35,749 nucleotides of DNA, from IMG/VR virus record IMGVR_UViG_2541047865_000003; one strand, 5' to 3'. Shown here in pieces: positions 19,052 to 33,745 of this stretch. Every line of letters starts with the position of its first letter. The stretch's first letter is position 1. The translations under genes were made by a program, and so were the position numbers. Source of the DNA: a virus. Its lineage: Duplodnaviria; Heunggongvirae; Uroviricota; Caudoviricetes. Under the pieces are notes generated by a model. It saw only the letters and a program-made list of their open reading frames with translations. It was not told where the DNA came from and did not search any database.

Positions 19052-19053
19052 CG

Positions 19054-19875
19054 TTATCCTCTCAGTTCCTGCTGTGCCAGCGGTTGAAGCGTCCCCTGAT
19101 AGCGGGCAAGGTCGGGACGGTATGCTGCCCCCGGCGCATAAGACCAGCCGACGTCGGTAGCCACCTTCGTGGTGCCGGTATTGAAGGTGGCGACGTTCTG
19201 CATCTCGCCGGTTTTCTCTGAGACCAGCTTCAGCTCCCATCCCAGAGCTGCGCCAGAACCTGACACCTTCAGGCCACGGGCACGCACATCCGCCGCGCTC
19301 AGGGCAATCACGCCACAACGGCAGCGCCAGCCGTTCGGCGGATAGAACGCCTGCCAGAACGGGTCATCATAGCGCAGCACCAGACCATGCAGCGCCAGAT
19401 GGCTCTTGCGGGTATGGCTGTCGTTGATGCCGGTATACATCCAGTACGGCCTGTCGTCGACGTTCTCCATCTGCTCAGCCCAGCGACCGGCGCTGTAGAG
19501 TACGGACATATTTGTGCGAAAGATGGTGTCGAGACGCCATGGGCTGCCCTGCTGGATGGTGACCGGCTCGCCCGTTACCGGGTCGGTGGTGTCACGTGAC
19601 CCCCACCATCCCTTGCGCTGCAGCTCCGGCTCCAGCTCCTGCCGGAACCAGCGGCCTGTTTTTCCTTCATCGACAGCCTGCTGCAGTGCCCCGCGAATAT
19701 CTTCCAGGATATCAAGGCGGGTCACTTTGGCGACGGTAAAGGCGCGGGCATGGGCATCCTGCCACATCTCCTCCCAGTCCCACGTGAAGCTATACCCTTT
19801 GGACTTCAGGTAACTGATAGCCCGTTTGGGGGGCAACGTCATGCAGTACGCCAGTTCAGCCGTTGTCACGCTCAT
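19054..19875 (-). CDS. Head morphogenesis protein (Mu F-like)
   Basis: ~273 aa after the portal gene. Start chosen at MSVTTAEL… with a GGGGG RBS; exact start uncertain. Confidence 0.7.
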   Translation of the reverse strand: MSVTTAELAYCMTLPPKRAISYLKSKGYSFTWDWEEMWQDAHARAFTVAKVTRLDILEDIRGALQQAVDEGKTGRWFRQELEPELQRKGWWGSRDTTDPVTGEPVTIQQGSPWRLDTIFRTNMSVLYSAGRWAEQMENVDDRPYWMYTGINDSHTRKSHLALHGLVLRYDDPFWQAFYPPNGWRCRCGVIALSAADVRARGLKVSGSGAALGWELKLVSEKTGEMQNVATFNTGTTKVATDVGWSYAPGAAYRPDLARYQGTLQPLAQQELRG

Positions 19876-21352
19876 GCAGACGCCCCCAGACAGTTGCAAC
19901 AAACATAATCCGTGCCAGCCGTTCCTGCAGGTCTTCAGCGTTCATCTGCGGGTACAGCTCGGCCAGTTCGCCCAGCAGCTCAGACGGATTGACGCCATCT
20001 TCAACCCGCTTAAACAAAGGAGCCAGTACGGGTTCCAGCGTGCCATTTAACGCGCCTCCGTTCATCAGAATATCCAGCGCGTCGTCCAGGGCCTGCTGTG
20101 CCTGAATATCGGCATCAATAGCTTCGGCAAATGACAGCGGCAGCATGTTCTTCTGGCGTTCTGACGGTGGTGTCTCGTCAATATCACCGTCCTGCAGCTG
20201 GTACTCACGCTTGAAGTATTGCGGGGTGAAGACCACACCGGCGCGGCTGAGTTTCTCGTCGCGGGTTGCCTGGGTATCGTCGACCGTTCCCTGTTCCCAC
20301 ATCTTCCAGACGGGGCTGGCCACGTCGCCAAAGTTCATTGATACCGCCATCCTGATGGCCTGATTCACCGCGCTTTCCACGATATCAGCGTCAGCGTCAC
20401 GGATATCATCAGTAACCTCCAGTCCGGCCTGCGCGGAGGCGCGGTTACTGTTGGCCTCGGTGGTCTGGTTCTGCCCCAGCAGGGCGATGGAGATTTCACT
20501 GCGGGCAAGCGTTATCAGGTTCTGATAAATATCGCTGCTGTCGGCCTTGCCTGCGGCCTCCTTAATTTCAATGGAGGAATCGTCGGGGATAGCGGCCACC
20601 GCGTCTTCCACCATTGCCTCCATGGAATCCAGCAGCAGGTCAATCTCACCCTGAGCGGTACCGCGCGGATGCTTGCCGATAACCCACGGTGAGCCATATT
20701 TCTCGGCAAAGCGCACCCAGAACTTCATGCCGCCTTTTTTGAAGGTCACGGGCCAGAAGCACATCGACAGGTCAGGGAAGCCATACGGGTTATCGTAGGT
20801 CGCGTCCTGACGCGGTACCACAAACTTGTTCAGCGGTACCGGCTCGCCTTCCAGCCCGGCGTCCTTGGCGCGAAAGCGCAGCAGGTTGTCGTTGTCGAAC
20901 TGGAACCACTCAGGGGGTTTACCTACGATATCGGCAATGGCCCAGGATTTAACAGAGCGTCCCCACATGATCTCACAGGGCTGATACCCGTAGAGAACGG
21001 CGTCGGTCATCTCGCCGATGATGCGGGACAGATCCAGATCGTCGAGCATATCCCGGATGAAGCTGAATACCCGCGCCGGGGCATGACCACGTTCAAGACC
21101 GCGCTCCAGCGATTTGACCGCCGCCTTACGCCTGCGGATGCAGCCACCGACCAGCGGGTCGGTACGCAGCTCGCGATAGATGCGGATATCCCGGCCCTGA
21201 GATTTCAGAATGGGGTCAGGGTTAGGCAGGTACATCCCCAGCCCGAAGAAGTCGATGGAACGGCTGCGCGAGGCGATCTGCTCCGTCAGTGTTTTATTAG
21301 GTTCGGCAAATTTGACGAACTCACTGGGTGAAACCCAGAGTCCACGGGCCAT
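19856..21352 (-). CDS. Portal protein (Mu gp29-like)
   Basis: 498 aa directly after the terminase with overlapping stop/start. Confidence 0.8.
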   Translation of the reverse strand: MARGLWVSPSEFVKFAEPNKTLTEQIASRSRSIDFFGLGMYLPNPDPILKSQGRDIRIYRELRTDPLVGGCIRRRKAAVKSLERGLERGHAPARVFSFIRDMLDDLDLSRIIGEMTDAVLYGYQPCEIMWGRSVKSWAIADIVGKPPEWFQFDNDNLLRFRAKDAGLEGEPVPLNKFVVPRQDATYDNPYGFPDLSMCFWPVTFKKGGMKFWVRFAEKYGSPWVIGKHPRGTAQGEIDLLLDSMEAMVEDAVAAIPDDSSIEIKEAAGKADSSDIYQNLITLARSEISIALLGQNQTTEANSNRASAQAGLEVTDDIRDADADIVESAVNQAIRMAVSMNFGDVASPVWKMWEQGTVDDTQATRDEKLSRAGVVFTPQYFKREYQLQDGDIDETPPSERQKNMLPLSFAEAIDADIQAQQALDDALDILMNGGALNGTLEPVLAPLFKRVEDGVNPSELLGELAELYPQMNAEDLQERLARIMFVATVWGRLHERDNG

Positions 21353-22875
21353 CAGTAATCCTCCAGCATACGGGCCGCCTGACGACGACGGCGTGAGCTT
21401 GCCTTCACCGGCCCTTTGTTAATTTCACGACTGGCGAAGTACGCCAGCGCCAGTGCGATGGCTGAATCCCCGTGACGCTTGCCACTGTCAGACTTCGCTT
21501 TTGAGCGCTGTTCCGGCACGCGGGGAACGCCGTTTACCACCTGAACGGCCCGCAGGTCATCCAGCGTATCTTCATCCTTCGGTAAATCCACCAGGTTGCC
21601 ATCTTCCAGCGCAGCCTTGACCGGCGGCATATGCTCGCGATACCAGTTTTCAGTTGGCATCACCTGCTTAACCCGGCTGGAGCCGTAGCGCTGCATGGCG
21701 TATTCGGCGAGGTAAGAGCCGTTACCACGGGCATCAAACGCTGCACCCAGCAGACCGGGCAGGCCATCCATCAGGTACCAGGCGATTTGCTCCTGCTGTT
21801 TGAACGGCACGTTGCGCAGCTCCAGCACGAACGGCACGCGGCGAACCAGGTTCTTCTCCTGCAGCAGGGGATAGTCCACCGACAGGTCACCGCTGCGGCC
21901 AAAGTCGCGACCCAGGAAAGAACGTGCGTCAGCGGGGAGCGCCTCCAGCAACGGTTTCAGATGTGTATCAAGCCACTCCTGCGTCTCGCTCCAGCGGACA
22001 TCATCGGGCTTCAGCTCGTAACCCTCCGGGCAGGTCAGACGCAACACCGGCGTGCCAGCCGACATACGGGACTCAATCAGGGCGCGGGACAGCCAGGCTC
22101 CGCCACCGTTGGCCGGAACACAGTCAAGCTCCTCCGATGCACCGGCACCGTAGAATTTGTACACCGATGCCATCCACGCCTGCTCGGATGCTTCCGACCA
22201 TTCTTTCCCGGTACGCAGGCAGACGCGGTGGAACAGCCCTTGGGACACAGCCTCCTGAAAAGTAATGCGATGTACGCTGCCCCCCTGACGCCCGGCCCGG
22301 ATATCACCGATAAGCGTATTGAACGGGTTATCGTCACCGTCATGGGTGGAGATAACGCGCACTTTACCGCCCCAGATAAGCATCGCCAGCGCCGCCTTCA
22401 GCAGTTCGTCCAGTTGCTCATGGAACGCCGCTTCGTCGATAACGATGATGCCCTGACGGCCACGCAGGTTAGACGGACGGCTGGAGAGCGCGACAACGCG
22501 GAAGCCGGAGTCAGGGAATTTGATGGTGTAGGTCTTGATATGCTTGTCGTCTTCGTCCTCTTCCCAGAAACCCTCTTCGATTTCACTGGCGGCATAGTTG
22601 AATGCCCGCGCCCACATCGCACACGCCTGGATATATTCGACGGTCATGTCCTGGTTATAGGCGATGTAATACACGTTCATCCCACCCGCAGGGGCTGAAG
22701 AGGCTGCGGTCAGCACGTCATCGGACGCCTCAGCCCAGGTGATACCGGTTCGGCGGCTCTTCTCAATCACCTTGAGCGGAGACGTGTCAGCCACCCAGCG
22801 CTGCTGGTAGGGCATCAGAACGGCGGGGATATCCAGCGCCGAGGTGTCAGGCAAAACAGGAGCAAGCTGGCTCAT
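21352..22875 (-). CDS. Terminase large subunit (Mu gp28-like)
   Basis: 507 aa with an N-terminal ATPase region (…KSRRTGITWAEASD…) and acidic nuclease-like motifs. Confidence 0.8.
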   Translation of the reverse strand: MSQLAPVLPDTSALDIPAVLMPYQQRWVADTSPLKVIEKSRRTGITWAEASDDVLTAASSAPAGGMNVYYIAYNQDMTVEYIQACAMWARAFNYAASEIEEGFWEEDEDDKHIKTYTIKFPDSGFRVVALSSRPSNLRGRQGIIVIDEAAFHEQLDELLKAALAMLIWGGKVRVISTHDGDDNPFNTLIGDIRAGRQGGSVHRITFQEAVSQGLFHRVCLRTGKEWSEASEQAWMASVYKFYGAGASEELDCVPANGGGAWLSRALIESRMSAGTPVLRLTCPEGYELKPDDVRWSETQEWLDTHLKPLLEALPADARSFLGRDFGRSGDLSVDYPLLQEKNLVRRVPFVLELRNVPFKQQEQIAWYLMDGLPGLLGAAFDARGNGSYLAEYAMQRYGSSRVKQVMPTENWYREHMPPVKAALEDGNLVDLPKDEDTLDDLRAVQVVNGVPRVPEQRSKAKSDSGKRHGDSAIALALAYFASREINKGPVKASSRRRRQAARMLEDY

Positions 22876-23420
22876 GAGGCAATCCCCAGAATTTCACGAC
22901 GCAGCGCCTGTACCGCATCGGTTGACAGTCCACCCTTACGGGCAATTTTCTCGGCGTTGCTGGCCGCCTGCTGCGCTCTGGCCCGGACTTCAGACTGGAA
23001 CTTCTTGAGGTTGACGGAAGCGCGGGACAGCGTGGCCACGTTCTTTGCCACCTTCGACAACAGCGCCACGCGCTCTTTGGGGTCGACTTCGCCTTCTTCC
23101 GCTTCCTGCAGCTGGACGATGCTCTCGAACAGCTCGGTCTGAATCAGGGCGATCACCGCCTCCGAACGTGCATCCTGATCGTCAGCCGCACCTTCGGTCA
23201 GCATCCGGGCCGCTTCAGTGGCTGCACGGATAGCGCCATAGCGGCGCTCAATCTTCTGGCCATAGCGATGGATAGCCGATTTGCTGATGACATAACCCTG
23301 CTCACGCAGCAGGGACTCCAGCTCGTTATACCCGCTGAAGCCGGATTCAGTCAGCGCCCGCTCAAGCCAGCGACGCACGTCTTCCGGCAGCTTTTCTATC
23401 GTGCTGCGTCTGGCCATCAT
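22872..23420 (-). CDS. Mu gp27-like protein (putative small terminase / DNA-binding)
   Basis: 182 aa helical protein immediately upstream of the large terminase with ATGA overlap. Confidence 0.55.
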   Translation of the reverse strand: MMARRSTIEKLPEDVRRWLERALTESGFSGYNELESLLREQGYVISKSAIHRYGQKIERRYGAIRAATEAARMLTEGAADDQDARSEAVIALIQTELFESIVQLQEAEEGEVDPKERVALLSKVAKNVATLSRASVNLKKFQSEVRARAQQAASNAEKIARKGGLSTDAVQALRREILGIAS

Positions 23421-23728
23421 TCACTCCAGTACTTTTCCGGGCGGGCGATACCGGGGCCGCATTCCACGGTATATTCCACCAGGTCAACGCCGAGGCGGGT
23501 CAGGTCGGCAAACCAGTCGCCGGAGGGTTTTTTCTCCAGATCAACCATCTTGCGGTCGGACAGATAATCCAGCTCACGGCGCAGCTCCAGCGGAGTGGTG
23601 TCCGGGTAGATGGCGCGGGACACGTCCAGCAGCAGCGTCTCGCTGGCGGTGTACGGGCGGGTTTTGTTCAGAGCAACCAGCAGACTCCAGCGCAGGGATT
23701 CCCGGCGCACGCGGGCGATATCAACCAT
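23417..23728 (-). CDS. Hypothetical protein (~103 aa)
   Basis: Start at MVDIARVRRE… preceded by a GGAGG RBS; the track ORF start lies upstream and overlaps the preceding gene. Confidence 0.4.
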   Translation of the reverse strand: MVDIARVRRESLRWSLLVALNKTRPYTASETLLLDVSRAIYPDTTPLELRRELDYLSDRKMVDLEKKPSGDWFADLTRLGVDLVEYTVECGPGIARPEKYWSE

Positions 23729-24053
23729 GGTGACCTCCTGTATGACGATACTGCTGTACCACTTCCAGTTTGTTGTAGAGTGCGTCCAGCTTGGCCTCGA
23801 TGACCGTCTGCCCACGGATGTAATCCTCGCGGCGGACGTAGTTCAGCGGTAAATCCGCCTTAAACCGCATAAATTCTTTTTCCAGCTCGCCCCAGTTGGA
23901 AGCGGACTGTTGCAGCGACTGCTCAAGAGAGGCGAACCGCGCCGCCTGACGCTCCTCCGCTTTACTGAACAGCCACTTGGCCATACCGCCGACAAAGCTC
24001 ATGAAGGTGATGAGAAAGCCCACCACCGTCCAGAATTCAACCTGCAACGTCAT
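23721..24053 (-). CDS. Small membrane protein (1 TM, ~110 aa)
   Basis: Start MTLQVEFWTVVGFLITFMSFVGG… in ATGA overlap with the Rz-like stop. Confidence 0.45.
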   Translation of the reverse strand: MTLQVEFWTVVGFLITFMSFVGGMAKWLFSKAEERQAARFASLEQSLQQSASNWGELEKEFMRFKADLPLNYVRREDYIRGQTVIEAKLDALYNKLEVVQQYRHTGGHHG

Positions 24054-24703
24054 TTCTGTAATCCTTCCCGTTCGTCCAGCAGCCCGTTTATCTGGCTGCG
24101 CCAGATGCGGCACTGCTTCGCGTTGTCGATGATGTTGGCGAGGACATCACGCTGGGAGACGCCTGAGTTGCGTAGCCAGGCGTCAGCGGCTTCAGGTTGC
24201 CCGGACGCTGCGCCAGTGCCGGTGCCAGCGGCGGCAGTTGCGTCTGAATGACCGGTGTCGACGGATGCGTTGTCATATCCGAGCGCGGCGTTGTACTGGC
24301 GCACGAAACCGCGAGTAAACACGCACTCAATGGGATGGCTCTTACCTTTTTCATCAATCCAGCGCTGTGTGACATCGTTAATTTGCCCCTGTAGTTGTTT
24401 GTTCTGGCTCTCCAGTTGAGCAATCTGCTCAAGGTAACTGGCTTCAGCCTGCTGCCCGGCGGCTACCTGTTCCTGATACCGTTTCGCCCAGGCCCGCAAC
24501 GCAGCGTTCTCAAGCGTTGCCTGCTCCGTTTTGTACGTGTCGAATGCTGACTGCAACTCACTGACCGCCTTATCGCCGTCGCGCGTGGCGTTTTCATGCC
24601 CGCTTTTGTAGCCCAGGTAATAAAGCCCAATCAGAAAAGCATTTATGACCACCGCCAGCAGCAGACTGCGCCACGGCAGATTTTTTAGCAGGTTAGTCCA
24701 CAC
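24050..24703 (-). CDS. i-spanin (Rz-like)
   Basis: N-terminal TM (WRSLLLAVVINAFLIGLYYLGY), coiled-coil middle region, contains the nested Rz1 frame. Putative GTG start with a GGGGAGG RBS; start uncertain. Confidence 0.6.
   Translation of the reverse strand: MWTNLLKNLPWRSLLLAVVINAFLIGLYYLGYKSGHENATRDGDKAVSELQSAFDTYKTEQATLENAALRAWAKRYQEQVAAGQQAEASYLEQIAQLESQNKQLQGQINDVTQRWIDEKGKSHPIECVFTRGFVRQYNAALGYDNASVDTGHSDATAAAGTGTGAASGQPEAADAWLRNSGVSQRDVLANIIDNAKQCRIWRSQINGLLDEREGLQK
24088..24354 (-). CDS. o-spanin (Rz1-like lipoprotein) nested in the +1 frame of the i-spanin gene
   Basis: MKKVRAIPLSACLLAVSC… signal peptide with lipobox, then a Pro-rich short mature region; entirely inside the Rz-like gene. 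Confidence 0.6.
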   Translation of the reverse strand: MKKVRAIPLSACLLAVSCASTTPRSDMTTHPSTPVIQTQLPPLAPALAQRPGNLKPLTPGYATQASPSVMSSPTSSTTRSSAASGAAR

Positions 24704-25430
24704 AGCTGCCGCCTCCCCAGGTGAGATAACGCGGGGCCAGTTCGTGCAGGATGCGCTGCGGATAATGACGGTTCTCCCGCCAGTTGGCAGTGCTGCGTCC
24801 GGCATTCACCGTGGCGACATGACCAAACCAGCGGGTGCTGTCCAGCCCCTGCTGCGAGGCCAGCCGTTTGTCCCGCTGTACCCAGCCCAGACCACCGTTA
24901 TAGCCTGACAGCGTCATGGCCATACGCTCGCAGTCATTGACGGCGCTGACGCGTTGCCACAGCCAGCGGTCATAGCTGACCAGCGCCCGGATGGCCCAAG
25001 ACGGATTAAACGGTTCACGGCTGTTAAGCCCCGGCATCAGCTGACTTATCCAGTCAGCGGTGGTGGGCATAAACTGCGCCAGTCCCTGAGCGCCAACCGG
25101 CGAGACCGCATCAGGTCGCCAGCCGCTTTCCTGATGCAGCTGCGCGGCGAAGTCGGCCACCGGCGCAGACATTCCCCATTCAAGCCGGGCATTACGGATC
25201 ACATCGTCGCGATACTGCAGCGCGGTCTGCGGTGGCTGGGCAGCGCGGGCCTGACTGAAGAAGCCGCCACACCAGAGCAGCCAGGCTACCGTTACTGAAC
25301 CAAAGAGCTGCCACCAGAAACTGTGCTTACCCGTTCGGGCCTGCCCGTGGCGGGCCAGTTCGATGCCCAGCCCCAGCAGTACCAGCACGGCCCAGACAAC
25401 CTGAGGCCAGTACATATAGAGGGTCATCAT
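24693..25430 (-). CDS. Lytic transglycosylase (SLT domain) endolysin with N-terminal membrane anchor
   Basis: SLT catalytic motif (…LHQESGWRPDAVSPVGAQGLAQFMP…); hydrophobic N-terminal segments; sits between the holin-like gene and the spanins. Confidence 0.8.
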   Translation of the reverse strand: MMTLYMYWPQVVWAVLVLLGLGIELARHGQARTGKHSFWWQLFGSVTVAWLLWCGGFFSQARAAQPPQTALQYRDDVIRNARLEWGMSAPVADFAAQLHQESGWRPDAVSPVGAQGLAQFMPTTADWISQLMPGLNSREPFNPSWAIRALVSYDRWLWQRVSAVNDCERMAMTLSGYNGGLGWVQRDKRLASQQGLDSTRWFGHVATVNAGRSTANWRENRHYPQRILHELAPRYLTWGGGSCVD

Positions 25431-25780
25431 TAAAGCCCCATCGCTACGGCCAGACAGACTGCAGCAACAATCAGCGCACGGCGGATTAGCGCAGCAGAAA
25501 AGACCAGGTGAAGGCCAGTCTGGACAGGGAAGCGACCATCAGCCATCAGCCTGTCATCATGCTTCAGGTACTGACCGGGACGGGCTTTGGGGAAAAGCGA
25601 ACGGTCAAGCCAGTAGCCCAATACTGCCGCCAGCGTGATGAGTGATAGCTTGTAGACAACCACCGGCAGCTGCTGGGGCGATACCAGACCGATGGTGCCG
25701 AGCAGCAGCACAGCGGTCAGCAGCCAGCCGCTGAGACGTGGCTTTTTAACAGGGGGAATGAATTTTTTCAGGTTTTTCAT
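25430..25780 (-). CDS. Putative holin (three hydrophobic helices)
   Basis: Start at MKNLKKF… preceded by an AAGGAG RBS; three predicted TM segments; first gene of the late arm with ATGA overlap to the endolysin. Confidence 0.5.
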   Translation of the reverse strand: MKNLKKFIPPVKKPRLSGWLLTAVLLLGTIGLVSPQQLPVVVYKLSLITLAAVLGYWLDRSLFPKARPGQYLKHDDRLMADGRFPVQTGLHLVFSAALIRRALIVAAVCLAVAMGL

Positions 25781-26027
25781 GAGCGTCTCCTTGTGTAGTG
25801 GAGACAGCATCACAAATGGTCGGGGAAAGGGATTTTAAACAGCGTTAATAGTGAGGATGCAGACGTGAACCGCATGATGGCTTTGAAAGAACGACCAGCC
25901 CGGTGCGGTAACACCAGGCTGGTCATCAACCCACAGGTATGCACTGTGAGCCGACCAGGGTTCAGTCAGTCTCGCGAGACCAGACTAGCCTGCCATATTT
26001 TCATTGATTGCAAAAGGCTTACGGATA

Positions 26028-26798
26028 ATGAAAGAACAATCTTTACCCATCGTCCCATGGATTGGCGGTAAACGTCGTCTGGCGAAGCATATTTTACCAT
26101 TGTTTCCGGCCCATACCTGCTATGTGGAGCCGTTCTGCGGGGCAGCTGCGCTCTATTTCCTAAAGACTCCCAGCAAGACCGAAGTCATTAACGATATCAA
26201 CGGGGAACTGGTGAACCTCTATCGGGTGGTCAAGCATCATCTGGAAGAATTTATTCGCCAGTTCAAATGGGCGCTGGTCAGCCGTCAGATTTACAAATGG
26301 TTGCAGGATACGCCGGAAGAAACGCTCACCGACATTCAGCGGGCGGCCCGGTTCTACTACCTGCAGAAACAGGCATTTGGCGGCAAGGTCGCCGATCACA
26401 CATTCGGTACCTCTACAACCAGTGCGCCGCGCTTCAATTTGCTGCGTATTGAGGAAGAACTGTCGATGGCACACCTGCGCCTGTCGAGAACGCTGATAGA
26501 GCATCTGGACTGGCACCAGTGCATAGAGCGATATGATCGCCCGCATACGCTGTTCTACTGTGACCCACCGTACTGGGGAACGGAAGGCTATGGTGTGGAG
26601 TTCGGGCTGGAAAACTATGATCACATGGCAGATTTAGCGCGAAGGATCAAAGGGAAGATGATTATATCAGTGAACGATATCCCGGAAATGCGGCAGGTAT
26701 TCAACGGTCTGAACATGCAGTCGGTTGATATCAGCTACAACCTTAAGGTAACAGGCAAACCCAGCCCGAAGAAAGAGCTGGTAATTTGTAATTTTTGA
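26028..26798 (+). CDS. DNA adenine methyltransferase (Dam-like, N6-adenine)
   Basis: SAM-binding motif (FCGAAALYF) and catalytic DPPY motif. Start chosen at MKEQSLPIVPWIGGK…; the track ORF begins 24 nt upstream. Confidence 0.75.
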   Translation: MKEQSLPIVPWIGGKRRLAKHILPLFPAHTCYVEPFCGAAALYFLKTPSKTEVINDINGELVNLYRVVKHHLEEFIRQFKWALVSRQIYKWLQDTPEETLTDIQRAARFYYLQKQAFGGKVADHTFGTSTTSAPRFNLLRIEEELSMAHLRLSRTLIEHLDWHQCIERYDRPHTLFYCDPPYWGTEGYGVEFGLENYDHMADLARRIKGKMIISVNDIPEMRQVFNGLNMQSVDISYNLKVTGKPSPKKELVICNF

Positions 26799-26812
26799 AA
26801 GAGGTAGTTAAA

Positions 26813-26838
26813 GGTGGTGGTGCATCTGCAGCACCACC
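26813..26838. terminator. Hairpin between convergent Dam-like and lipoprotein genes (candidate bidirectional terminator)
   Basis: GGTGGTGGTGC-ATCT-GCAGCACCACC, 11-bp stem with one mismatch, between the two stops (26798 and 26846); flanking T-rich sequence on both sides but no clean U-tract. Confidence 0.45.
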
Positions 26839-26845
26839 TAAACAT

Positions 26846-27379
26846 TTAATCCTGCCTTGGACAAGTCCAATAATCATTATCTGGCTCTGGTGAATAAGCT
26901 TTCAAACAACCTGCTCGCGGGGTCTTACCATCATCTGTCATAGGAACTTTTTCCTTATCAAGTTTCACGGTCAGGTCTCCACCAGGAACATCCGTTTTAT
27001 CGAAAAAAACAGCCTGACATGCTGATTTAGATATTTTCACTTCGTGGGCATTATTTGATATGAACAAATAACAATTATGACCAGAGGCTATGTAGTCACT
27101 TGGAATATTATTTTCGTCTTTAATATGAAACTGCACCGTTGTCACCGGGCGTTCGCTATCCTCGGATACTTCGACTTTTTCAAAACTGTCCGCGTACTTA
27201 TCCAGGCCGGGGAGTTGTTGGCGAATAAACGGTAATTCGCGATTTACAACCGGATTATCTGTTTCAACGCTAAAAACCGCGTGCTCCTTAGCTGTGGTGG
27301 ACGTATCAGCAGGATCGGTATTATCTCCACACCCAGATAAAACAAATATCAACGGTAAAAATAATTTGCGCATAGTCAT
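26846..27379 (-). CDS. Lipoprotein of unknown function (177 aa), AT-rich moron downstream of the repressor
   Basis: Signal peptide MTMRKLFLPLIFVLSGC with lipobox; mature part has four more Cys; AT-rich codons; RBS ~35 nt after the repressor stop on the same strand. Confidence 0.65.
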   Translation of the reverse strand: MTMRKLFLPLIFVLSGCGDNTDPADTSTTAKEHAVFSVETDNPVVNRELPFIRQQLPGLDKYADSFEKVEVSEDSERPVTTVQFHIKDENNIPSDYIASGHNCYLFISNNAHEVKISKSACQAVFFDKTDVPGGDLTVKLDKEKVPMTDDGKTPRAGCLKAYSPEPDNDYWTCPRQD

Positions 27380-27414
27380 GTCCTTATACCTCTAATGTTC
27401 TTAATAGGAACAGA

Positions 27415-27825
27415 TTAACCCGTATTTTTTAATCTTTCGAACGCTGCGGACAGCTCCTTAAGCTGTTTTTCCATATCAATCATTCGCTGTTTTTCCTCAG
27501 CGCCTCGCAGCAACTCTTTTCGCACCTCTGGCTCCAGTTGGTTGAGCAGCTCCAATAACTTCAGATCAGACTGGTTGAAATGCTGCTCCTGATTAGCTGG
27601 CTGTGCTTTCTCTACCCCAACAGCTTCCCCTTTACCAGTAAGTAGCCAATCTATTGATATGTTCAAATGGGTGCTTAGCGCAACAAGAGCCTCTGCATTA
27701 GGTTCTCTCTCTCCACGCAGATAGTTTTGAAGTGAGCGATATGGAATTTTTGACAAGTCTGACAATGCCTTAATTGTCAGACCCTTAGCATCCATCGCTT
27801 CGCGCAATCTCTCTTTTATACTCAT
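27415..27825 (-). CDS. Prophage repressor (XRE-family HTH)
   Basis: Start at MSIKERLREAMDAKGLTIKALSDLSKIPYRSLQNYLRGER… (HTH), C-terminal coiled-coil-like region. Divergent from the early operon across an ~88-bp promoter/operator region. Confidence 0.7.
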   Translation of the reverse strand: MSIKERLREAMDAKGLTIKALSDLSKIPYRSLQNYLRGEREPNAEALVALSTHLNISIDWLLTGKGEAVGVEKAQPANQEQHFNQSDLKLLELLNQLEPEVRKELLRGAEEKQRMIDMEKQLKELSAAFERLKNTG

Positions 27826-27841
27826 TTGAACATATCTCAAT

Positions 27842-27869
27842 TTGACATACCCGTTTGGGTGCGTACAAT
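27842..27869 (+). promoter_or_regulatory. Candidate sigma70 early promoter (TTGACA-16-TACAAT) with overlapping operator dyad
   Basis: TTGACA at ~27842-27847 and TACAAT at ~27864-27869, upstream of the Ner-like gene. Inverted repeat TTGGGT(N11)ACCCAA straddles the -10; a further ACCCAA lies ~20 bp downstream. Confidence 0.5.
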
Positions 27870-27913
27870 AGACCCAATAGAGTACATCATAACCCAACAG
27901 GAACACGGTGCAT

Positions 27914-28138
27914 ATGAACAAACAACAAGTTCGGGCACGGCTGGTTGAAAGAGGCAGTAGCTTGCGCCAGTTCGCGCTTAACGCGGGCTATGAGCCACGA
28001 ACAGTCACCCAGGCTGTCAGCCGCTGGGCAGGCAAAAGCGAACTTCCACGCGGTCGTTTGACTTATCGGATTTTGCGAGACCTTTCGGTCGCAATAGGCA
28101 AAGAAGTTACCCCCGGCATCCTCAAGGAGGCGTCATGA
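27914..28138 (+). CDS. Ner-like DNA-binding early regulator
   Basis: …LRQFALNAGYEPRTVTQAVSRWAGKSE… resembles the Mu Ner core; first gene of the early operon, divergent from the repressor. Confidence 0.65.
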   Translation: MNKQQVRARLVERGSSLRQFALNAGYEPRTVTQAVSRWAGKSELPRGRLTYRILRDLSVAIGKEVTPGILKEAS

Positions 28139-28440
28139 GTAAACCAAATACATCAAGCTCAGGTACCCGTATTTTGCGTGTCCTTAAGGCTTTACGCGGT
28201 CACGCTCTGAACGGTGTTTCTAACGGCGAGCTGGCGTCAGCTCTGGGCGAGTCCCCGGCGAATATCAATCGGGCGCTCAATACCCTTATCGAAGAAGGAC
28301 TGGCCCTGAAACTGGATAACGGGCGTTTTGCCCCAGGAGTCCAGCTCTTACAAATCGCCATGGCGCACAGTACCGAAATGGCGCGGGCGCAGGATCGTAT
28401 CAATGAAATTAACCAGCGTGTTATGGCTGGTAGTCGCTAA
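28135..28440 (+). CDS. Winged-helix/HTH DNA-binding protein (IclR-N-like), 101 aa
   Basis: …VSNGELASALGESPANINRALNTLIEEGLA… HTH-like segment; ATGA overlap with the Ner-like stop. Confidence 0.5.
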   Translation: MSKPNTSSSGTRILRVLKALRGHALNGVSNGELASALGESPANINRALNTLIEEGLALKLDNGRFAPGVQLLQIAMAHSTEMARAQDRINEINQRVMAGSR

Positions 28441-28449
28441 GGAGTTGAA

Positions 28450-29358
28450 ATGGGACGCACAAAATCACAACCAGTTGAACTAGTGGAAGATGCACCGCTG
28501 ACCGATGGTCTCAGTGTCAGTCTTAATGCTATGTCCGAACATCGCCTCGAAATCATGCAGCAGTTTGGTGATGGCCTGCCGTATGAACGTGATCGTATTG
28601 TCCATGAAACACGTTTTTATATGGCTCAGAGTGCTGAAGCCATGCTGGAGGCGGGTAAACGACTGGTAATTCTCAAAGAAAATGAACCACATGGTGACTT
28701 CATCGACATCGTTGAGTCTCAGTTGTCCCTGTCCAAACGTACCGCGCAGGTGATGATGCAAGCATCCCTCAAATATTTGTCTCCCAAGCTTGAACCAAAA
28801 GCGCAAGCGCTTGCGCTTTTGGGTAAAACAAAGCTGTTTGAGTTGATGACGGAAGATGACGAAGACCTCGTCGAATTAGCCGATGGCGGCACGATTGCTG
28901 GTATGAGCCTCGATGATATTGATCGCATGACAAGCCGCGAACTGAAAGCGGCCCTACGCGAAGCGCGTGAAACCAACGCAGCACAACAGCGCGTGCTTGC
29001 CGACAAAAACGAAAAAATCGACTCGCTCTCCACAAAACTGGAGAAGAAATCCCGTATCCAGCCGCCCAAGCCTGACGAAGAGGTGAAGAAGCTGCGTGCG
29101 GAAGTTACAGCGTTAGCGGTTGAGGCGGAATCTGCCATCGCCGTTCGACTGTCCAGCGCCTTTGAGACCCTGTGCGCATACTGTGCTGAAAATATGATTG
29201 ATACCCCCAGAGACTTTATGGCCGGTCTGGTCTGCCAGTTGGAAAGCACCGCGCGTAGCCTGCGCTCCACATTTGACCTGCCGGACGAGCCGACAGGCAA
29301 CGCCGCCCCTTCATGGCTGACTGACCCGACGCCAGAGATTAACGGGCAGGAGGCATAA
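28450..29358 (+). CDS. Hypothetical early protein (302 aa)
   Basis: Strong RBS (AAGGAG); acidic/coiled-coil-rich; sits between the regulators and the transposase, where Mu has no gene. Confidence 0.5.
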   Translation: MGRTKSQPVELVEDAPLTDGLSVSLNAMSEHRLEIMQQFGDGLPYERDRIVHETRFYMAQSAEAMLEAGKRLVILKENEPHGDFIDIVESQLSLSKRTAQVMMQASLKYLSPKLEPKAQALALLGKTKLFELMTEDDEDLVELADGGTIAGMSLDDIDRMTSRELKAALREARETNAAQQRVLADKNEKIDSLSTKLEKKSRIQPPKPDEEVKKLRAEVTALAVEAESAIAVRLSSAFETLCAYCAENMIDTPRDFMAGLVCQLESTARSLRSTFDLPDEPTGNAAPSWLTDPTPEINGQEA

Positions 29359-29361
29359 CCC

Positions 29362-31131
29362 ATGAGTGCCGCCCTGACTGAACGACTGGTTTATGTTGCC
29401 CGCGCGGCACGTGACGCGGGGCATGGTAAGCGTGGTGCGATATATGATGCCGCCTGCGCCGAACTGGGCATTTCCCGCGCCACCCTGCTGCGCAAGCTGA
29501 AGGAGGTATCAGTGACTGACAAACGTAAAAAACGCGCCGATGCCGGGCGCAGTGCCCTGAGCCGCGACGAAGCCGCGCTGATATCTGCCACGCTGCGCGA
29601 GGCCACCCGTAAGAACGGTAAGCGCCTGTATTCCATCGCGGATGCGGTGGAGACCCTGCGGTCAAACGGCTTTATCACTGCTGGCAGAACGGACGAGGCC
29701 ACAGGCGAGTTTTTCCCGCTGTCCGAGGACACCATCAGCCGCGCCCTGCGGAACTATGGTCTGCACCCGGAACAGCTTGACGCACCGGCCCCGTCGTCCG
29801 AGATGGCCAGCCTGCATCCCAATCACGTCTGGGAGATTGATGCCTCACTTTGTACGCTTTACTACCTGAGCAACGGCCATAAAGGGTTGCAGGTGATGGA
29901 CAGCTCGAAGTTCTACAAGAACAAGCCTGCCAACATCGCCCGCATCGCCAGTGACCGCGTGTGGAGTTACGAGATTACCGACCATACCAGCGGCTGGATT
30001 TACGTTGAGTACGTGATGGGTGCGGAATCTGGTGAGAACCTCTGTTCTGTGCTTATCAACGCCATGCAGGAGCGCGGCGGCGCGGACGTGCTGCACGGCG
30101 TGCCGAAAATACTCTACCTTGATCCCGGTTCGGCGAACACCGCTGGCATGACGAAAAACATGTGCCGCTCGCTGGGCATCAATCTGATAGCGCACAAGCC
30201 GCATAACGCCCGCGCCACCGGGCAGGTGGAAAAGGCCCGTGACATTATCGAACGTAAACTGGAGCCGGGTCTCAAATTCCAGCCGGTTCATAGCCTGGAC
30301 GAACTGAACGCGCTGGCGGTGAAATGGCGCAGCCACTTTAACGCCACGGCGGTCCACAGCCGCCACGGTAAAACCCGCACGGATATCTGGCTGAAGATTA
30401 CTGCTGACCAGCTGAAAAAAGCGCCATCCGTTGAGGTTTGCCGCGAACTGGCGGTGGCCGCACCGGAACTCCGTAAGGTCACACCAAAACTGCGCGTCTC
30501 GTTCCGGGGCAATGAGTTTGACGTTTCGACGGTACCGGGCGTACTGGTCGGCGAAAAACTGATGATTACCCGTAACCCGTGGCGCAGCGATGTGGCGCAG
30601 GTGGTGCTGACCGGTGAGGACGGTCACGAGACGTTCTTCCTGGTCGAAGAGGTCAGAAAGAACGAGTTCGGCTTTGCCGAAAGCGCGGCGGTATTTGGCG
30701 AAAACTACAAAGCCCTGCCGGAGACCCCGGCGCAGACGGCGGCAAAAGAAATCGAAGAGCTGGTTACGGGCACCGATAACGCCACCGATGCAGCTGCTGC
30801 ACGCAAGGCGAAGGCGCTGCCGTTCGGCGGGCGACTTGACCCGTACAAACATATCGACGACACCACGCTTCCGGCCTATATGCCGAAGCGCGGTCAGGCT
30901 TCAGACGTGCGCGGGCCGCGTATTGAGCAGCGTCCGCTGACCCATGTGGAGGCGGCGAAAGCCCTGCGCGAGAAGTTTGGCGCTAACGGCCATATCTGGA
31001 CGCCGGAACATTACCGCCAGTTAACGGCGCAGTACCCGGATGGCGTACCTGAAGCCGCGCTGGATGAGGTGATGGTTACCCTGACCACTCCGGCCCGCAA
31101 CAGCGTTATCAGCATCGTTAACGGTAACTGA
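29362..31131 (+). CDS. DDE transposase (Mu A-like)
   Basis: 589 aa with an N-terminal DNA-binding region and candidate DDE residues (WEIDAS, LYLDPGS, HNARATGQVEKAR); followed by the AAA+ ATPase partner; RBS GGAGG. Confidence 0.8.
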   Translation: MSAALTERLVYVARAARDAGHGKRGAIYDAACAELGISRATLLRKLKEVSVTDKRKKRADAGRSALSRDEAALISATLREATRKNGKRLYSIADAVETLRSNGFITAGRTDEATGEFFPLSEDTISRALRNYGLHPEQLDAPAPSSEMASLHPNHVWEIDASLCTLYYLSNGHKGLQVMDSSKFYKNKPANIARIASDRVWSYEITDHTSGWIYVEYVMGAESGENLCSVLINAMQERGGADVLHGVPKILYLDPGSANTAGMTKNMCRSLGINLIAHKPHNARATGQVEKARDIIERKLEPGLKFQPVHSLDELNALAVKWRSHFNATAVHSRHGKTRTDIWLKITADQLKKAPSVEVCRELAVAAPELRKVTPKLRVSFRGNEFDVSTVPGVLVGEKLMITRNPWRSDVAQVVLTGEDGHETFFLVEEVRKNEFGFAESAAVFGENYKALPETPAQTAAKEIEELVTGTDNATDAAAARKAKALPFGGRLDPYKHIDDTTLPAYMPKRGQASDVRGPRIEQRPLTHVEAAKALREKFGANGHIWTPEHYRQLTAQYPDGVPEAALDEVMVTLTTPARNSVISIVNGN

Positions 31132-31141
31132 GGAGGAAGGC

Positions 31142-32308
31142 ATGCTGGTACTGAAGCAACAACTGAAAGAGGCCCGCATCCCGCAGGCGGTGGTGGCAAG
31201 AGCCGTCGCCGTTTCCGAGGCCACGCTGGCCCAGATTGTGAACCATAACGAGTGGCCACGCACCAGCCCCGAAGAGGTACGCCAGCGTCTGGCGTTGTAT
31301 CTGGAAAGTAAGGGGATTGATACAGCGAAAAGTTTTGATGCTGCACAGGGCGCTGTCACGCCCCGTACAGCGGGTACTACCGATAAAACCAACCTCAGTG
31401 AGGAAGAGAACATGTTACTCAAAAAGCAGGTGTTATTTCCAGCAACCAAAAAAGCGTTTGGCCTTTTCCGTGATCCGTTCGCCGATGAAGCCATGCAGGG
31501 CGCGGACGATGTGTTCACCACGCCGGATATCCGCTACGTGCGTGAGGCGCTGTTCCAGACCGCCCGCCATGGTGGCTTTCTGGCGGTTATCGGCGAGTCC
31601 GGTGCGGGTAAATCCACGCTGCGCCGCGACCTGATTGAACGCGTCAACCGCGAGAACGCGCCGGTGATTGTAATTGAGCCATACATCATCGCCATGGAAG
31701 ACAACGACGTGAAGGGCAAAACCCTGAAGGCGGCAGCTATCGCCGAGGCCATCATCAGCACCATCGCGCCGCTGGAGAGTATCAAACGCAGCCAGGACGC
31801 CCGCTTCCGCCAGTTGCACCGCGTCCTGAAGGACAGCAGTCAGGCGGGTTTCAGCCACGTTCTGGTGATTGAGGAGGCCCACAGCCTTCCCATTCCGACG
31901 CTGAAGCACCTTAAACGCTTCTTCGAACTGGAGTCCGGCTTCAAAAAACTGCTGTCCATCGTGCTGATTGGCCAGCCTGAACTGGCGGACAAACTGTCCG
32001 AACGCAACATGGAAGTCCGTGAGGTCGTCCAGCGCTGCGAGGTGGTTGAATTGCTGCCGCTGGACAACAGCCTCGAAGAGTTTCTGACGTTCAAACTGCA
32101 ACGTGCCGGTAAGCAGCTGGCCGACATCATGGACGCCAGCGCAGTGGAAGCCATCCGCGCCCGTCTGAGCAATCTGGGTAGTAGCCGTAAAAGCATGGTC
32201 AGCCTGCTGTATCCGCTGGCCGTCAGTAACCTGGTGATAGCCGCCATGAATCTGGCTGCTGAAATCGGGGTTCCGCAGGTCAACGCCGACGTCGTCAAAG
32301 GAGTTTAA
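31142..32308 (+). CDS. Transposition ATPase / target-DNA activator (Mu B-like AAA+)
   Basis: Walker A GESGAGKST, Walker B VLVIEEAH, N-terminal HTH-like region; immediately downstream of the transposase. Confidence 0.8.
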   Translation: MLVLKQQLKEARIPQAVVARAVAVSEATLAQIVNHNEWPRTSPEEVRQRLALYLESKGIDTAKSFDAAQGAVTPRTAGTTDKTNLSEEENMLLKKQVLFPATKKAFGLFRDPFADEAMQGADDVFTTPDIRYVREALFQTARHGGFLAVIGESGAGKSTLRRDLIERVNRENAPVIVIEPYIIAMEDNDVKGKTLKAAAIAEAIISTIAPLESIKRSQDARFRQLHRVLKDSSQAGFSHVLVIEEAHSLPIPTLKHLKRFFELESGFKKLLSIVLIGQPELADKLSERNMEVREVVQRCEVVELLPLDNSLEEFLTFKLQRAGKQLADIMDASAVEAIRARLSNLGSSRKSMVSLLYPLAVSNLVIAAMNLAAEIGVPQVNADVVKGV

Positions 32309-32310
32309 TC

Positions 32311-32580
32311 ATGAAATCCATCGCCGATATCAACCAGCAGATGAACAAGGTGCAGTCCGCCATTATGGCGCTCAACGCCATGAACACTACCGTGCAGAGC
32401 GTCATGATTGCTGGCAGTAAGCCGGTTATCCGTATCGCCCGCAACGGGCACTGTGCCCGCCTGCTGGAGCAGGGCAAAGCGAGTTATACCCATGTTGGCC
32501 ATGACGGCTCAGGGCGCTTCCGTCAGGGCGTCTTTGAGTTGCATGGCTGCCGTATTACCTGGTCAGAGTCGTTACATTAA
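32311..32580 (+). CDS. Hypothetical early protein (89 aa)
   Basis: AGGAG RBS; starts 3 nt after the B stop; several His/Cys residues. Confidence 0.45.
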   Translation: MKSIADINQQMNKVQSAIMALNAMNTTVQSVMIAGSKPVIRIARNGHCARLLEQGKASYTHVGHDGSGRFRQGVFELHGCRITWSESLH

Positions 32581-32597
32581 CCATAAGGTGAACAGAG

Positions 32598-33209
32598 ATG
32601 AGCGAAGTAAATAAAGAAAACTACATGAAAGACCGCAAGGGGCGTCTGGTGCCGGTTGACCAGGTGTCTGACTATGACCTTGCGATGGACTCTTTCGTTA
32701 AAGAACAGGTTGTCGCCGCGAAGGTTAAACGCGATGAACTCAGTGACTTCAAGCGTCGTGCCTTTGACGAGTGCTATGCCTGGCTTGACCTTGTGGCCGA
32801 GAAGTACGGCAGAACGCGTGGCGGTGCCAAAGGCAACGTGACCTTCAGCAGCTTCGACGGTGCTCAGCAGATCACCATCCGCGTGCAGGAAACCCTGACC
32901 TTCGGGCCAGAGCTGCAGATTGCCAAAGACCTGATAGACGAGTGCGTCACCGAGTGGTCGGAAGGCGCGAACGCCAACCTGCGGGCCATCATCAGCGATG
33001 CTTTTCAGGTGGACAAAGAGGGCCAGCTTAATACCGGACGTATTCTTTCCCTGCGCCGCGTCAAGATTCAGGACGAGCGCTGGAACCGGGCAATGGAGGC
33101 CATATCGGAATCACTGCAGGTGGCAATGTCCAAAACCTATATTAATTTCCGGGAGAAAGATAAACACGGGAAGCTAATTAATATTCCGTTAGATATCGCT
33201 GCCATTTAA
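32598..33209 (+). CDS. Hypothetical early protein (203 aa; possibly the DUF3164 family of Mu-like prophages)
   Basis: Occupies the semi-essential early region; family assignment is from memory only. Confidence 0.45.
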   Translation: MSEVNKENYMKDRKGRLVPVDQVSDYDLAMDSFVKEQVVAAKVKRDELSDFKRRAFDECYAWLDLVAEKYGRTRGGAKGNVTFSSFDGAQQITIRVQETLTFGPELQIAKDLIDECVTEWSEGANANLRAIISDAFQVDKEGQLNTGRILSLRRVKIQDERWNRAMEAISESLQVAMSKTYINFREKDKHGKLINIPLDIAAI

Positions 33210-33287
33210 TTTTAATTCAATTTCTTTTTATTTCGGCGTCAGTGCCGTGGGCTTCTGCACGCCGAAAACAGCATTAAGGAATAAATC

Positions 33288-33476
33288 ATGTCCATCAAAT
33301 GTATCAACTGCCAGAAAGGTATCACCACCCTGAAGTTCAGCGACGCCAGCGTCATTTCCTCCGGTAAGTACCGCGTACCAGCCGTCCTCATCACGCTGGT
33401 ATGCCCACACTGTAGCCAGCATTACTACACCGAAGTCCCGGCCATGGAATTCATCCCTTGTGAGGCAAAGAAATGA
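33288..33476 (+). CDS. Com-like zinc-ribbon protein (62 aa)
   Basis: Two Cys pairs (CINC…CPHC). Pattern and length resemble Mu Com as recalled from memory (MKSIRCKNC…CPRCKRH). AAGGAA RBS; 3' end overlaps the next gene (ATGA). Confidence 0.5.
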   Translation: MSIKCINCQKGITTLKFSDASVISSGKYRVPAVLITLVCPHCSQHYYTEVPAMEFIPCEAKK

Positions 33477-33745
33477 TTACTGCAAAAGAAGCCGAAAAAC
33501 GGACCCGTGAAATTGTCGCGGAATATATCAGTGAATGTGGTTGTGAAAATCCCAACCATATCCGGCAGGTATTAATCAAATTAATCAGCATGGCTTCACA
33601 CGCCATCGTAGCAACAAATGGCCTAGATCAGGCTATTTACGTTCTTCACGCCACCAGTGACCACCTGAGAAAAATGCCGCCGCTGTACGAGCTGGAAATT
33701 ACTGAGGACGGCCACGTGAAAGTTATCGGCGTATCACGCCATTGA
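33473..33745 (+). CDS. Hypothetical protein (90 aa), translationally coupled to the Com-like gene
   Basis: ATGA overlap with the Com-like ORF; no recognisable motif. Confidence 0.45.
   Translation: MITAKEAEKRTREIVAEYISECGCENPNHIRQVLIKLISMASHAIVATNGLDQAIYVLHATSDHLRKMPPLYELEITEDGHVKVIGVSRH

Follow-up and report, generated by a model that had tools for sequence, protein, structure and literature searches.

Gene content of the two arms

The window, which is the whole 35,749-nt stretch of DNA analysed here, carries ~33 lysis, head and tail genes on the minus strand, running from a holin (start 25780) to gin (1678), and ~17 early genes on the plus strand, running from 27914 to Mor (35749). The two arms are separated by genes for a Dam methylase, a lipoprotein and an HTH repressor. 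Chance does not account for such a pattern, in which ~33 successive genes share one strand and a further ~17 the other. The gene picture was assembled from the ORF list, the RefSeq annotation of 99.9%-identical prophages and Pfam, PHROG and NCBIfam scans; because all of these concur, the strand switch is real and lies where a sequence-only reading, which had described a divergent two-arm layout, placed it. The principal features are the following.

1..1599, plus strand: host DNA belonging to the 5' portion of the fimbrial usher gene elfC, into which the prophage is inserted (100% megablast match to elfC in many E. coli genomes)
1600..1643, plus strand: tail-side prophage end, beginning 5'-TG (abuts differing host DNA in three genomes; motif search)
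1678..2259, minus strand: Gin-type serine DNA invertase (Resolvase and HTH_7 domains; 71% amino-acid identity to Mu Gin)
2328..4172, no strand assigned: invertible fibre segment between two gix-like sites, which form perfect inverted repeats of 21 bp (2328-2348 and 4152-4172)
3808..25780, minus strand: late arm, comprising tail fibre, P2-like baseplate, tape measure, tube and sheath, Mu-like head genes, TerL/TerS, an Rz-like protein, SLT endolysin and holin (BcepMu collinearity, RefSeq annotation)
25430..25780, minus strand: holin (Holin_2-3 domain)
25781..25870, minus strand: putative activator-dependent late (lysis/head/tail) promoter (conserved motif)
25893..25924, minus strand: GC-rich hairpin with a UUCUUUC tail on the minus-strand transcript, candidate terminator (13-bp inverted repeat)
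26028..26798, plus strand: Dam-family N6-adenine DNA methyltransferase (PF02086, E 1e-27; TIGR00571 above cutoff)
26812..26839, no strand assigned: hairpin where the dam and lipoprotein genes converge, candidate bidirectional terminator (inverted repeat)
26846..27379, minus strand: lipoprotein, downstream of the repressor on the same strand (signal peptide with LSGC lipobox)
27415..27825, minus strand: lysogeny repressor, HTH_3/CI-type (Pfam HTH_3 and Phage_CI_repr; PHROG transcriptional repressor families)
27826..27913, no strand assigned: divergent control region (sequence)
27914..35749, plus strand: early arm (Pfam, PHROG and NCBIfam scans; BcepMu collinearity)
27914..28138, plus strand: gp16/Ner-like HTH protein (family matches below curated cutoffs)
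29362..31131, plus strand: rve (Tn552/IS1604-like) transposase (rve match of 31.4 bits, just under the Pfam cutoff of 32.6)
31142..32308, plus strand: ExeA-like AAA+ transposition ATPase 'B' (AAA_22, 73 bits; 60% identity to BcepMu gp08)
34935..35363, plus strand: GemA
35360..35749, plus strand: Mor

The early arm encodes, in plus-strand order, the gp16/Ner-like protein, a gp12-like HTH regulator, DUF3102, the rve transposase, the AAA+ ATPase, DUF3164, DUF2786, GemA and Mor, the last being the only Mor/C-family gene present. Its conserved genes map in order to the BcepMu minus strand, from 7974 down to 368 (tblastn), and the transposase shares 68% identity with BcepMu gp09 and 57% with its B3 counterpart. 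The Mu names "A", "B" and "ner", given to these genes in the sequence-only reading, have to be abandoned: the genes are BcepMu-type (an rve/Tn552-like transposase, an ExeA-like ATPase and a gp16-like protein) and have no real Mu matches. MuA and Mu c yield no tblastn match in the window at E<=1, and MuB and Ner give only chance-level matches (E ~0.1), located in unrelated late-arm genes.

All late-arm genes map in order to the BcepMu plus strand, 11555-33248, with 30-79% amino-acid identity (tblastn). They include a tail cassette in P2 order (sheath, tube, tape measure, U, X, D, V, W, J, I, H) that is collinear with BcepMu gp39-gp52 and whose RefSeq names agree; the sheath and tube are 79% and 68% identical to those of BcepMu, respectively.

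Close relatives, prophage ends and insertion sites

Escherichia phage Phi06_2974 B (KM389306) is 100% identical to the window over the shared 28.3 kb, and prophages of E. coli CFS3292, HH107 and G5 are 99.8-99.9% identical over 20000-35749 but occupy different insertion sites. Klebsiella phage KP12 (OM835952) is ~95-97% identical (97% over 20000-35749) and carries one additional gene of ~0.94 kb, inserted between dam and the holin promoter, while Escherichia phage PhiKM (PQ738613) matches about 80% of the element at ~84-87% identity and differs in its set of central genes. The three phages and three prophages are essentially the same phage as the element in the window; apart from the differences just given, they share its central region and its two arms.

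The apparent stop codon at 1600-1602 reads in the sequence as the terminal TGA of the prophage. Two putative transposase-binding repeats, GCGATAAATG at 1611-1620 and GAGATAAATG at 1634-1643, lie 23 bp apart in this tail-side end. The Mor-side end aligns with it in register, as do the ends of BcepMu and B3 and the Mu-R end. The two prophage ends share the motif TGAT-N7-GNGATAAATG-N13-G(A/T)GATAA, and the ends here agree with the 23-bp repeats that have been reported at the termini of phiE255 and BcepMu (PMC2920897). The sequence-only reading had noted that no end-like sequence separates the arms, and a search with the motif derived from both real ends (TGAT-N7-GNGATAAATG, with the repeat 23 bp further in) bears this out: perfect copies in the window occur only at 1600-1643, and none is found in 25780-27914 at <=1 mismatch for the short pattern or <=3 mismatches for the long pattern.

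The window stops exactly at the mor stop codon, so its own Mor-side end and right host flank lie outside it. The position of that end, 161 bp past the end of the window, is seen in two related sequences. The window's copy would be expected to continue for 161 bp ending in CATTTATCTCAAGTCTAATCA, followed by GGTAGC and then the remainder of elfC. In CFS3292, gadC is split by the whole two-arm element with CGTTGC on both sides; in HH107, a 34,376-bp element splits csgC with an ATTGTC duplication; and in G5, the element occupies a yjfY/ulaF intergenic site with a CGAAAC duplication. The element thus has TG...CA ends and 6-bp target duplications at three of four differing insertion sites, the fourth being the elfC site of the window, and it moves as a single ~34.4-kb unit. 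The window's own copy is presumably also one unit, given the 99.9%-identical copies elsewhere. The elfC insertion itself is carried by no complete E. coli genome. The flank of Phi06_2974 B mismatches the expected GGTAGC duplication; the record is therefore either a different copy or one bearing packaged host DNA. The 54 nt of unrelated sequence beyond the CA end of its contig at most hint at replication by transposition with packaging of random host DNA at the virion DNA ends.

The central region and its control signals

The dam gene is read opposite to the late arm, and its product is 65% identical in amino-acid sequence to B3 ORF48, which is located in the B3 tail cluster. A 68-aa ORF upstream of dam (25865-26071) was considered as a Com-like translational regulator, by comparison with B3 ORF47, and dropped because it has neither CxxC pairs nor a PHROG match. 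The lipoprotein gene has a low G+C content of 0.435, and the N-terminus of its product, MTMRKLFLPLIFVLSGC, bears the lipobox. This protein matches only PHROG 10002 (function not annotated), has no Pfam, NCBIfam or solved-structure match and, among phage records, is confined to this lineage. It may be a moron expressed in the lysogen.

The repressor is the positional equivalent of BcepMu gp17, and operator-like repeats are present in and near its gene. Since tblastn finds no match in BcepMu, B3 or Mu for the repressor, the lipoprotein or the gp16/Ner-like protein, and the gp16 and Ner family matches fall below curated cutoffs, the roles assigned to all three proteins rest on position and domain type. 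Within the divergent control region, a near-consensus early promoter (TTGACA-16-TACAAT, 11/12 consensus match) lies at 27842-27869 on the plus strand.

Upstream of the holin, a TAACGCnnTTTAAAATCC element (25830-25850) precedes TGTGATGCT by ~18 nt. KP12 and PhiKM share this conserved arrangement with the window, and BcepMu does so in part; in KP12 it stays with the holin despite the 0.94-kb insertion. The window contains no second exact copy of the motif, and the promoter scan gave no sigma-70 consensus promoter at 25781-25870. A loose resemblance, with different spacing, is seen upstream of the protease gene (CACTATT...TTCCCCG). The neighbouring hairpin at 25893-25924 folds at -34.7 kcal/mol (z = -4.1) and is fully conserved in KP12 and G5; as a candidate terminator, it may shield the late arm from leftward read-through. 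The same dyad was weighed as a repeated activator site, but there are no other good copies and the terminator reading fits better. For the hairpin at 26812-26839, the folding energies are -18.8 kcal/mol on the minus strand and -21 kcal/mol on the plus strand (z = -4.7 and -3.2). No Rfam RNA families were found in the window.

Proposed regulation

These signals suggest a scheme in which the promoter, operator, terminator and Mor-site assignments are all predictions from sequence. In the lysogen, the CI-type repressor (27415-27825) would be transcribed leftward together with the lipoprotein and would shut the strong rightward early promoter (27842-27869). Upon induction, this promoter would drive the gp16/Ner-like protein, the regulators, the rve transposase and its AAA+ partner, GemA and lastly Mor, outward to one end of the element. 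Mor would then activate the promoter just upstream of the holin (about 25781-25870), from which the lysis, head and tail genes would be expressed outward to the other end. The two hairpins and the opposed dam gene may separate repressor-side transcription from the late arm.

The invertible fibre segment

Two alternative sets of fibre C-terminus and assembly chaperone (Collar and Caudo_TAP domains) lie on opposite strands between the gix-like sites, whose core is CAAAACCTTGGTTT compared with CAAAACCTCGGTTT in Mu gix. The orientation of the segment relative to gin is opposite in different genomes, and its content differs too. The gix-like sites cut the fibre gene and a serine invertase adjoins them, which is the arrangement of a Gin/Cin/Pin-type fibre switch and points to one here; Gin would invert 2328-4172 and so switch the fibre tip. 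A 29-aa fibre stretch matches Mu S across the Mu G-segment boundary. BcepMu has no fibre inversion system (PMC2771037), and a preprint had already pointed out that E. coli prophages classed as phiE255-like carry an invertase. This segment is the sole real graft in the element, and only the ~2.6-kb gin/gix module is Mu-derived. It offers a tidy example of module exchange on a BcepMu-type fibre and no surprise.

Comparison with BcepMu, B3 and Mu

BcepMu has two gene clusters, with genes 1-13 on the bottom strand, genes 17-52 on the top strand and lysogeny control at their interface (PMC2771037). The reverse-complemented window is collinear with it gene for gene, all the way from Mor to the tail fibre at the opposite end. 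As in BcepMu (NC_005882) and phiE255, the divergent arms meet at a repressor/gp16 control region, mor adjoins one TG end and the tail fibre the other, and paired terminal repeats lie ~23 bp apart. Also shared with these phages are the rve (Tn552-like) transposase and ExeA-like ATPase, the holin/SLT endolysin/Rz cassette, the Mu-like head genes and the P2-like contractile tail, and amino-acid identity to BcepMu is 30-79% over ~35 genes. The differences are that the immunity proteins are unrelated at the tblastn level, BcepMu gp18-gp20 are replaced by the opposite-strand Dam gene and the lipoprotein, and the terminal acyltransferase of BcepMu is replaced by the Gin invertase and gix-bounded fibre segment. 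BcepMu is also a Burkholderia phage, whereas the host here is E. coli. Nothing is added to the BcepMu plan except the Mu-like Gin/gix segment and the placement of the Dam gene. The usual genus threshold is at least 70% nucleotide identity over genome length; with a nucleotide similarity of ~26% to BcepMu (blastn coverage 0.38 x identity 68%), the element falls outside a strict Bcepmuvirus and shares its architecture but not its genus.

Pseudomonas phage B3 (NC_006548) likewise has an inverted early operon, with the order Mor, GemA, DUF2786, DUF3164, B, A, DUF3102 and regulator. Unlike the present element, B3 is a siphovirus whose non-contractile tail genes give no matches, and its Dam gene lies inside the tail cluster rather than in the central region. 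Mu (NC_000929) shares the transposable lifestyle, TG...CA ends, a similar right-end sequence, GemA, Mor, the TerL, portal, F and G head proteins and the Gin/gix invertible fibre switch. Mu differs in that its early operon is not inverted relative to the late genes, in having C in addition to Mor where a single Mor/C-type activator is present here, and in its Mu-type rather than P2-like tail. Target duplications are 5 bp in Mu and 6 bp here; a literature search found no paper stating their length for BcepMu. With no MuA or c match at E<=1, an inverted early arm and a nucleotide similarity of 1.7%, the element also lies outside a strict Muvirus. Because gemA/mor and the late genes match the same Mu strand, the arms are inverted only relative to Mu.

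Comparison of strand and order with NC_005882 and NC_006548 shows divergent clusters, one ending in mor and the other running through lysis, head and tail genes to the opposite end. The inverted early module, which the sequence-only reading had likened to those of B3 and BcepMu, is accordingly upheld by the annotated records, by tblastn synteny and by the literature, in which the early-operon inversion of B3 is stated (PMC5977238) and the two clusters of BcepMu are described (PMC2771037). The two-arm layout is standard for the BcepMu/B3 phage group, has been described since 2004 and is already known. The observation is thus correct yet ordinary.

One prophage and its alternatives

The window is very probably one BcepMu/B3-type transposable E. 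coli prophage inserted in elfC, complete except for 161 bp, with 25780-27914 as its central lysogeny-control and accessory region rather than a junction of two elements. Two truncated Mu-like prophages, or a prophage and a remnant, could instead lie head to head with their boundary in that region, a reading for which nothing speaks but the strand switch and the low G+C of the central stretch. The end motif, however, is absent from the central region, and neither arm would be a viable phage alone, while together they equal BcepMu gene for gene. The insertions in CFS3292, HH107 and G5 refute this alternative, since in each genome a single host locus and one 6-bp direct duplication enclose both arms; the single prophage proposed in the sequence-only reading therefore stands, and the chance of two is negligible. 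A strain-specific inversion, or an assembly artefact, in a prophage that was once Mu-ordered has nothing positive in its favour, although the window stops at the mor stop codon with the far end out of view. It is refuted, and its probability reduced to almost nil, by the junction, which recurs identically in three phage records and in 35 complete genomes of E. coli that are of unrelated origin and match at least 80% of 20000-35749. In 13 complete genomes among the matches listed, a single alignment piece spans the junction without a break at 98.5-100% identity, and the junction is likewise contiguous in Phi06_2974 B, KP12 and PhiKM. Moreover, the Mor-side terminus is a true transposon end adjoining mor, and the distantly related BcepMu and B3 share the orientation.

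A further possibility, along the lines of the mosaic in the sequence-only reading, is a novel recombinant in which a B3/BcepMu-type early module was joined to a Mu/P2-type late module. It draws on the 71% identity of Gin to Mu Gin, the fibre stretch resembling Mu S and the head proteins F, TerL and portal, which match Mu at 28-48% identity. The same late genes nevertheless match BcepMu better and are fully collinear with it, the sheath (79%) and tube (68%) among them; the P2-like tail genes have no tblastn match in Mu at E<=1e-3; the contribution of Mu is confined to the gin/gix module; and a P2-like tail cassette together with a Mu-like head is already part of BcepMu (PMC2771037). Such a recombinant is thus very improbable, and the mosaic that had been thought unplaceable, combining this layout with a contractile P2/Mu-type tail, dissolves into a late arm collinear with BcepMu throughout. 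The earlier interpretation as a whole therefore holds for the single prophage and its known inverted early module, and fails for the mosaic and the Mu gene names.

Beyond the single BcepMu/B3-type prophage, a more speculative proposal, which we consider rather unlikely, is that the E. coli lineage forms a separate branch of BcepMu-type phages at genus level that still awaits formal description, with a Mu Gin/gix host-range switch grafted onto a BcepMu-type fibre, and that the central control region, flanked by the terminator-like hairpins and the opposed dam gene, perhaps also acts as a transposition enhancer. If it were an enhancer like the Mu operator region, which lies ~1 kb from one end, its distances to the two ends would be ~8 kb and ~26 kb.

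Occurrence and annotation

Relatives of the element occur in 646 of 5426 complete E. coli genomes (about 12%). Because they interrupt genes such as elfC, gadC and csgC, recognising their true ends helps to explain strain phenotypes. The element should be annotated as a single transposable prophage of the BcepMu type, which has an rve transposase and an ExeA-like ATPase and makes 6-bp target duplications, and neither as Mu nor as two prophages; beyond correct annotation, the significance is small. GenBank files the related PhiKM under Bcepmuvirus.

Architecture and kinship

The element in the window is a BcepMu-type transposable prophage. GenBank already contains near-identical copies of it, some deposited as phages and others lying within many E. 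coli genomes. Gene and domain content on each strand agrees with the divergent two-arm layout described in the sequence-only reading.

Features of the window
1-1599: 5' part of elfC, an E. coli fimbrial usher gene (100% identity)
1678-2259, minus: gin
gin to holin, minus: late arm, with tail fibre, P2-like baseplate, tape measure, tube, sheath, head, terminase and lysis genes
25430-25780, minus: holin
25893-25924: strong hairpin with a U-rich tail on minus-strand RNA
26028-26798, plus: Dam-family methylase, central region
26812-26839: strong hairpin between the convergent lipoprotein and dam genes
26846-27379, minus: lipoprotein with LSGC lipobox, central region
27415-27825, minus: HTH_3/CI-type repressor, central region
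27914-35749, plus: early arm, with small HTH protein, HTH regulator, DUF3102, rve-domain transposase, AAA+ (ExeA-like) protein, DUF3164, DUF2786, GemA and Mor (the mor stop at 35749 is the final base)

Identities of the transposase are 68% to BcepMu gp09, 69% to its phiE255 counterpart and 57% to that of B3. With tblastn at E<=1, neither MuA nor Mu c matches anything in the window; the matches of MuB and Ner are at chance level only and fall in unrelated late-arm genes. In gene-by-gene tblastn of the window against BcepMu, B3 and Mu, all late genes (window minus strand) fall on the BcepMu plus strand, where holin lies at 11555, fibre at 33248 and the rest between them in unchanged order, and all conserved early genes (plus strand) on its minus strand, again in order, from 7974 to mor at 368. 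The early and head genes of B3 are oriented as in the window, and the annotated BcepMu and B3 records have the same architecture. In Mu, by contrast, gemA/mor and the head genes match one strand, so the window's arms are inverted relative to Mu only. BcepMu has its genes in two clusters (1-13 on the bottom strand, 17-52 on the top), with lysogeny control at their interface and a tail cassette related to P2 in sequence and order (PMC2771037). The proposed B3/BcepMu-type inverted early module is thus upheld by synteny, annotated records and the published map. The same reading regarded the inverted layout with a contractile tail as a mosaic that could not be placed; this does not stand, since the collinear BcepMu plan already has a P2-type tail, which is therefore no odd partner for the layout.

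With nucleotide similarity of only about 26%, below the 70% identity of the genus rule, BcepMu is a relative at the level of architecture. By tblastn against BcepMu, B3 and Mu, neither the immunity proteins nor the lipoprotein finds a match, and the small HTH protein scores below the cutoffs of the family models for BcepMu gp16 and for Ner. The Dam protein is 65% identical to B3 ORF48; here its gene lies in the central region, in the direction opposed to the late arm. This relocated gene and the Mu-derived Gin fibre switch are accessory modules of the element. G+C is 0.58-0.61 across the conserved arms, falls to 0.435 across the lipoprotein and repressor (26500-27500), and is about 0.48-0.51 across the gin/fibre segment (1-4000) and distal early genes (33000-34500); the low-G+C stretches fit accessory modules acquired in enterobacteria.

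Prophage ends and insertion sites

The sequence switches at 1600 to TGATGCGCCGCGCGATAAATG..., which in further E. coli genomes is joined to host DNA of unrelated sequence, identifying this position as a prophage end. The true termini were derived from close relatives, the prophages of E. coli CFS3292, HH107 and G5 (99.8-99.9% identity over 20000-35749). They place the Mor-side end 161 bp beyond the window, finishing in ...TCTAATCA. Both ends share TGAT-N7-GNGATAAATG, with a second motif copy 23 bp inward, a spacing that agrees with the 23-bp terminal repeats of phiE255 and BcepMu (PMC2920897). In all three relatives, both arms lie jointly within a single host locus, with a 6-bp direct duplication on either side.

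Insertion sites of the relatives
CFS3292: gadC, split; CGTTGC
HH107: csgC, split; ATTGTC; element of 34,376 bp
G5: yjfY/ulaF spacer; CGAAAC

With elfC of the window, the insertion sites number four. Target-site duplications (read at L002 30905-30916, L004 5095-5100 and the ends of L008 and L009) are 6 bp here versus 5 bp in Mu, and GGTAGC (1594-1599) should accordingly recur to the right of the window's copy, outside the window. The record of phage Phi06_2974 B carries 54 nt beyond the CA end (L003 28485-28538) that mismatch this expected duplication; they may be packaged host DNA or reflect a different insertion site.

Could the arms instead be two separate prophages, or their junction an assembly artefact? 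Two prophages are contradicted by the shared host locus and duplication in CFS3292, HH107 and G5, and by the end motif, whose perfect matches in the window are confined to 1600-1643 and of which 25780-27914 holds no match at all, as had been claimed for the region between the arms. An artefact is contradicted by the junction, which is unbroken in each of the 13 complete genomes whose listed alignment is a single piece and in the phage records Phi06_2974 B (100%), KP12 (97%) and PhiKM (87%); at least 80% of 20000-35749 is covered in 35 complete E. coli genomes. Together these observations exclude both readings and bear out the proposal of one prophage.

Matches to 20000-35749 occur in 646 of 5426 complete E. 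coli genomes, mostly partial and at 80-90% identity, with up to three matching places in some, indicating that related BcepMu-type (PhiKM-like) prophages are common in E. coli.

The invertible fibre segment

The Gin invertase at the tail end shares 71% identity with that of Mu. A fibre gene whose N-terminus is BcepMu gp52-like is cut by perfect 21-bp gix-like inverted repeats (2328-2348 and 4152-4172, core CAAAACCTTGGTTT); tblastn also finds a short match to Mu S that spans the boundary of Mu's invertible G segment. Relative to gin, the shared part of the segment points one way in the window and in HH107 and the other way in CFS3292 and G5, a difference suggestive of active inversion. BcepMu is without a fibre inversion system (PMC2771037), so the Gin/gix module is a graft. 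Invertase-bearing phiE255-like prophages have already been noted in E. coli ST131 (preprint).

Probable regulation in the central region

The repressor and the first early gene are 88 bp apart, and in this space lies a near-consensus promoter directed toward the early arm, TTGACA-16-TACAAT. The repressor and lipoprotein are read leftward, in the late-arm direction, and are separated from holin by both hairpins and the opposed dam gene. A scan upstream of holin finds no sigma-70 consensus promoter. A motif there, TAACGCnnTTTAAAATCC (25830-25850, minus strand), followed about 18 nt on by TGTGATGCT, is one that KP12 and PhiKM share with the window and that BcepMu partly conserves; a 0.94-kb insertion in KP12 has not parted it from holin. 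It is a possible Mor site. The element has a single Mor/C-family gene, and the simplest model is a two-step cascade, in which the early operon finishes with Mor and Mor would activate the late arm.

A loosely similar CACTATT...TTCCCCG with different spacing lies upstream of the head protease (18480-18510, minus strand); it might mark a second late promoter or have arisen by chance. At the repressor gene, a 17-nt inverted repeat (27656-27672/27820-27836) pairs the region of the start codon with sequence 147 nt into the gene, and the N-terminal coding part holds a perfect 10-bp palindrome, GTCTGACAAT...ATTGTCAGAC (27757-27782); operators or mRNA structure are possible roles.

The insertion in KP12 is an additional minus-strand gene of ~0.94 kb, KP12_281 (L001 about 24070-25010). 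It separates the holin promoter region from the hairpin on the dam side, at a point corresponding to 25870-25885 of the window. With GCGTTAATAG-like sequence at the insertion boundary, this spot looks like an accessory-gene slot.
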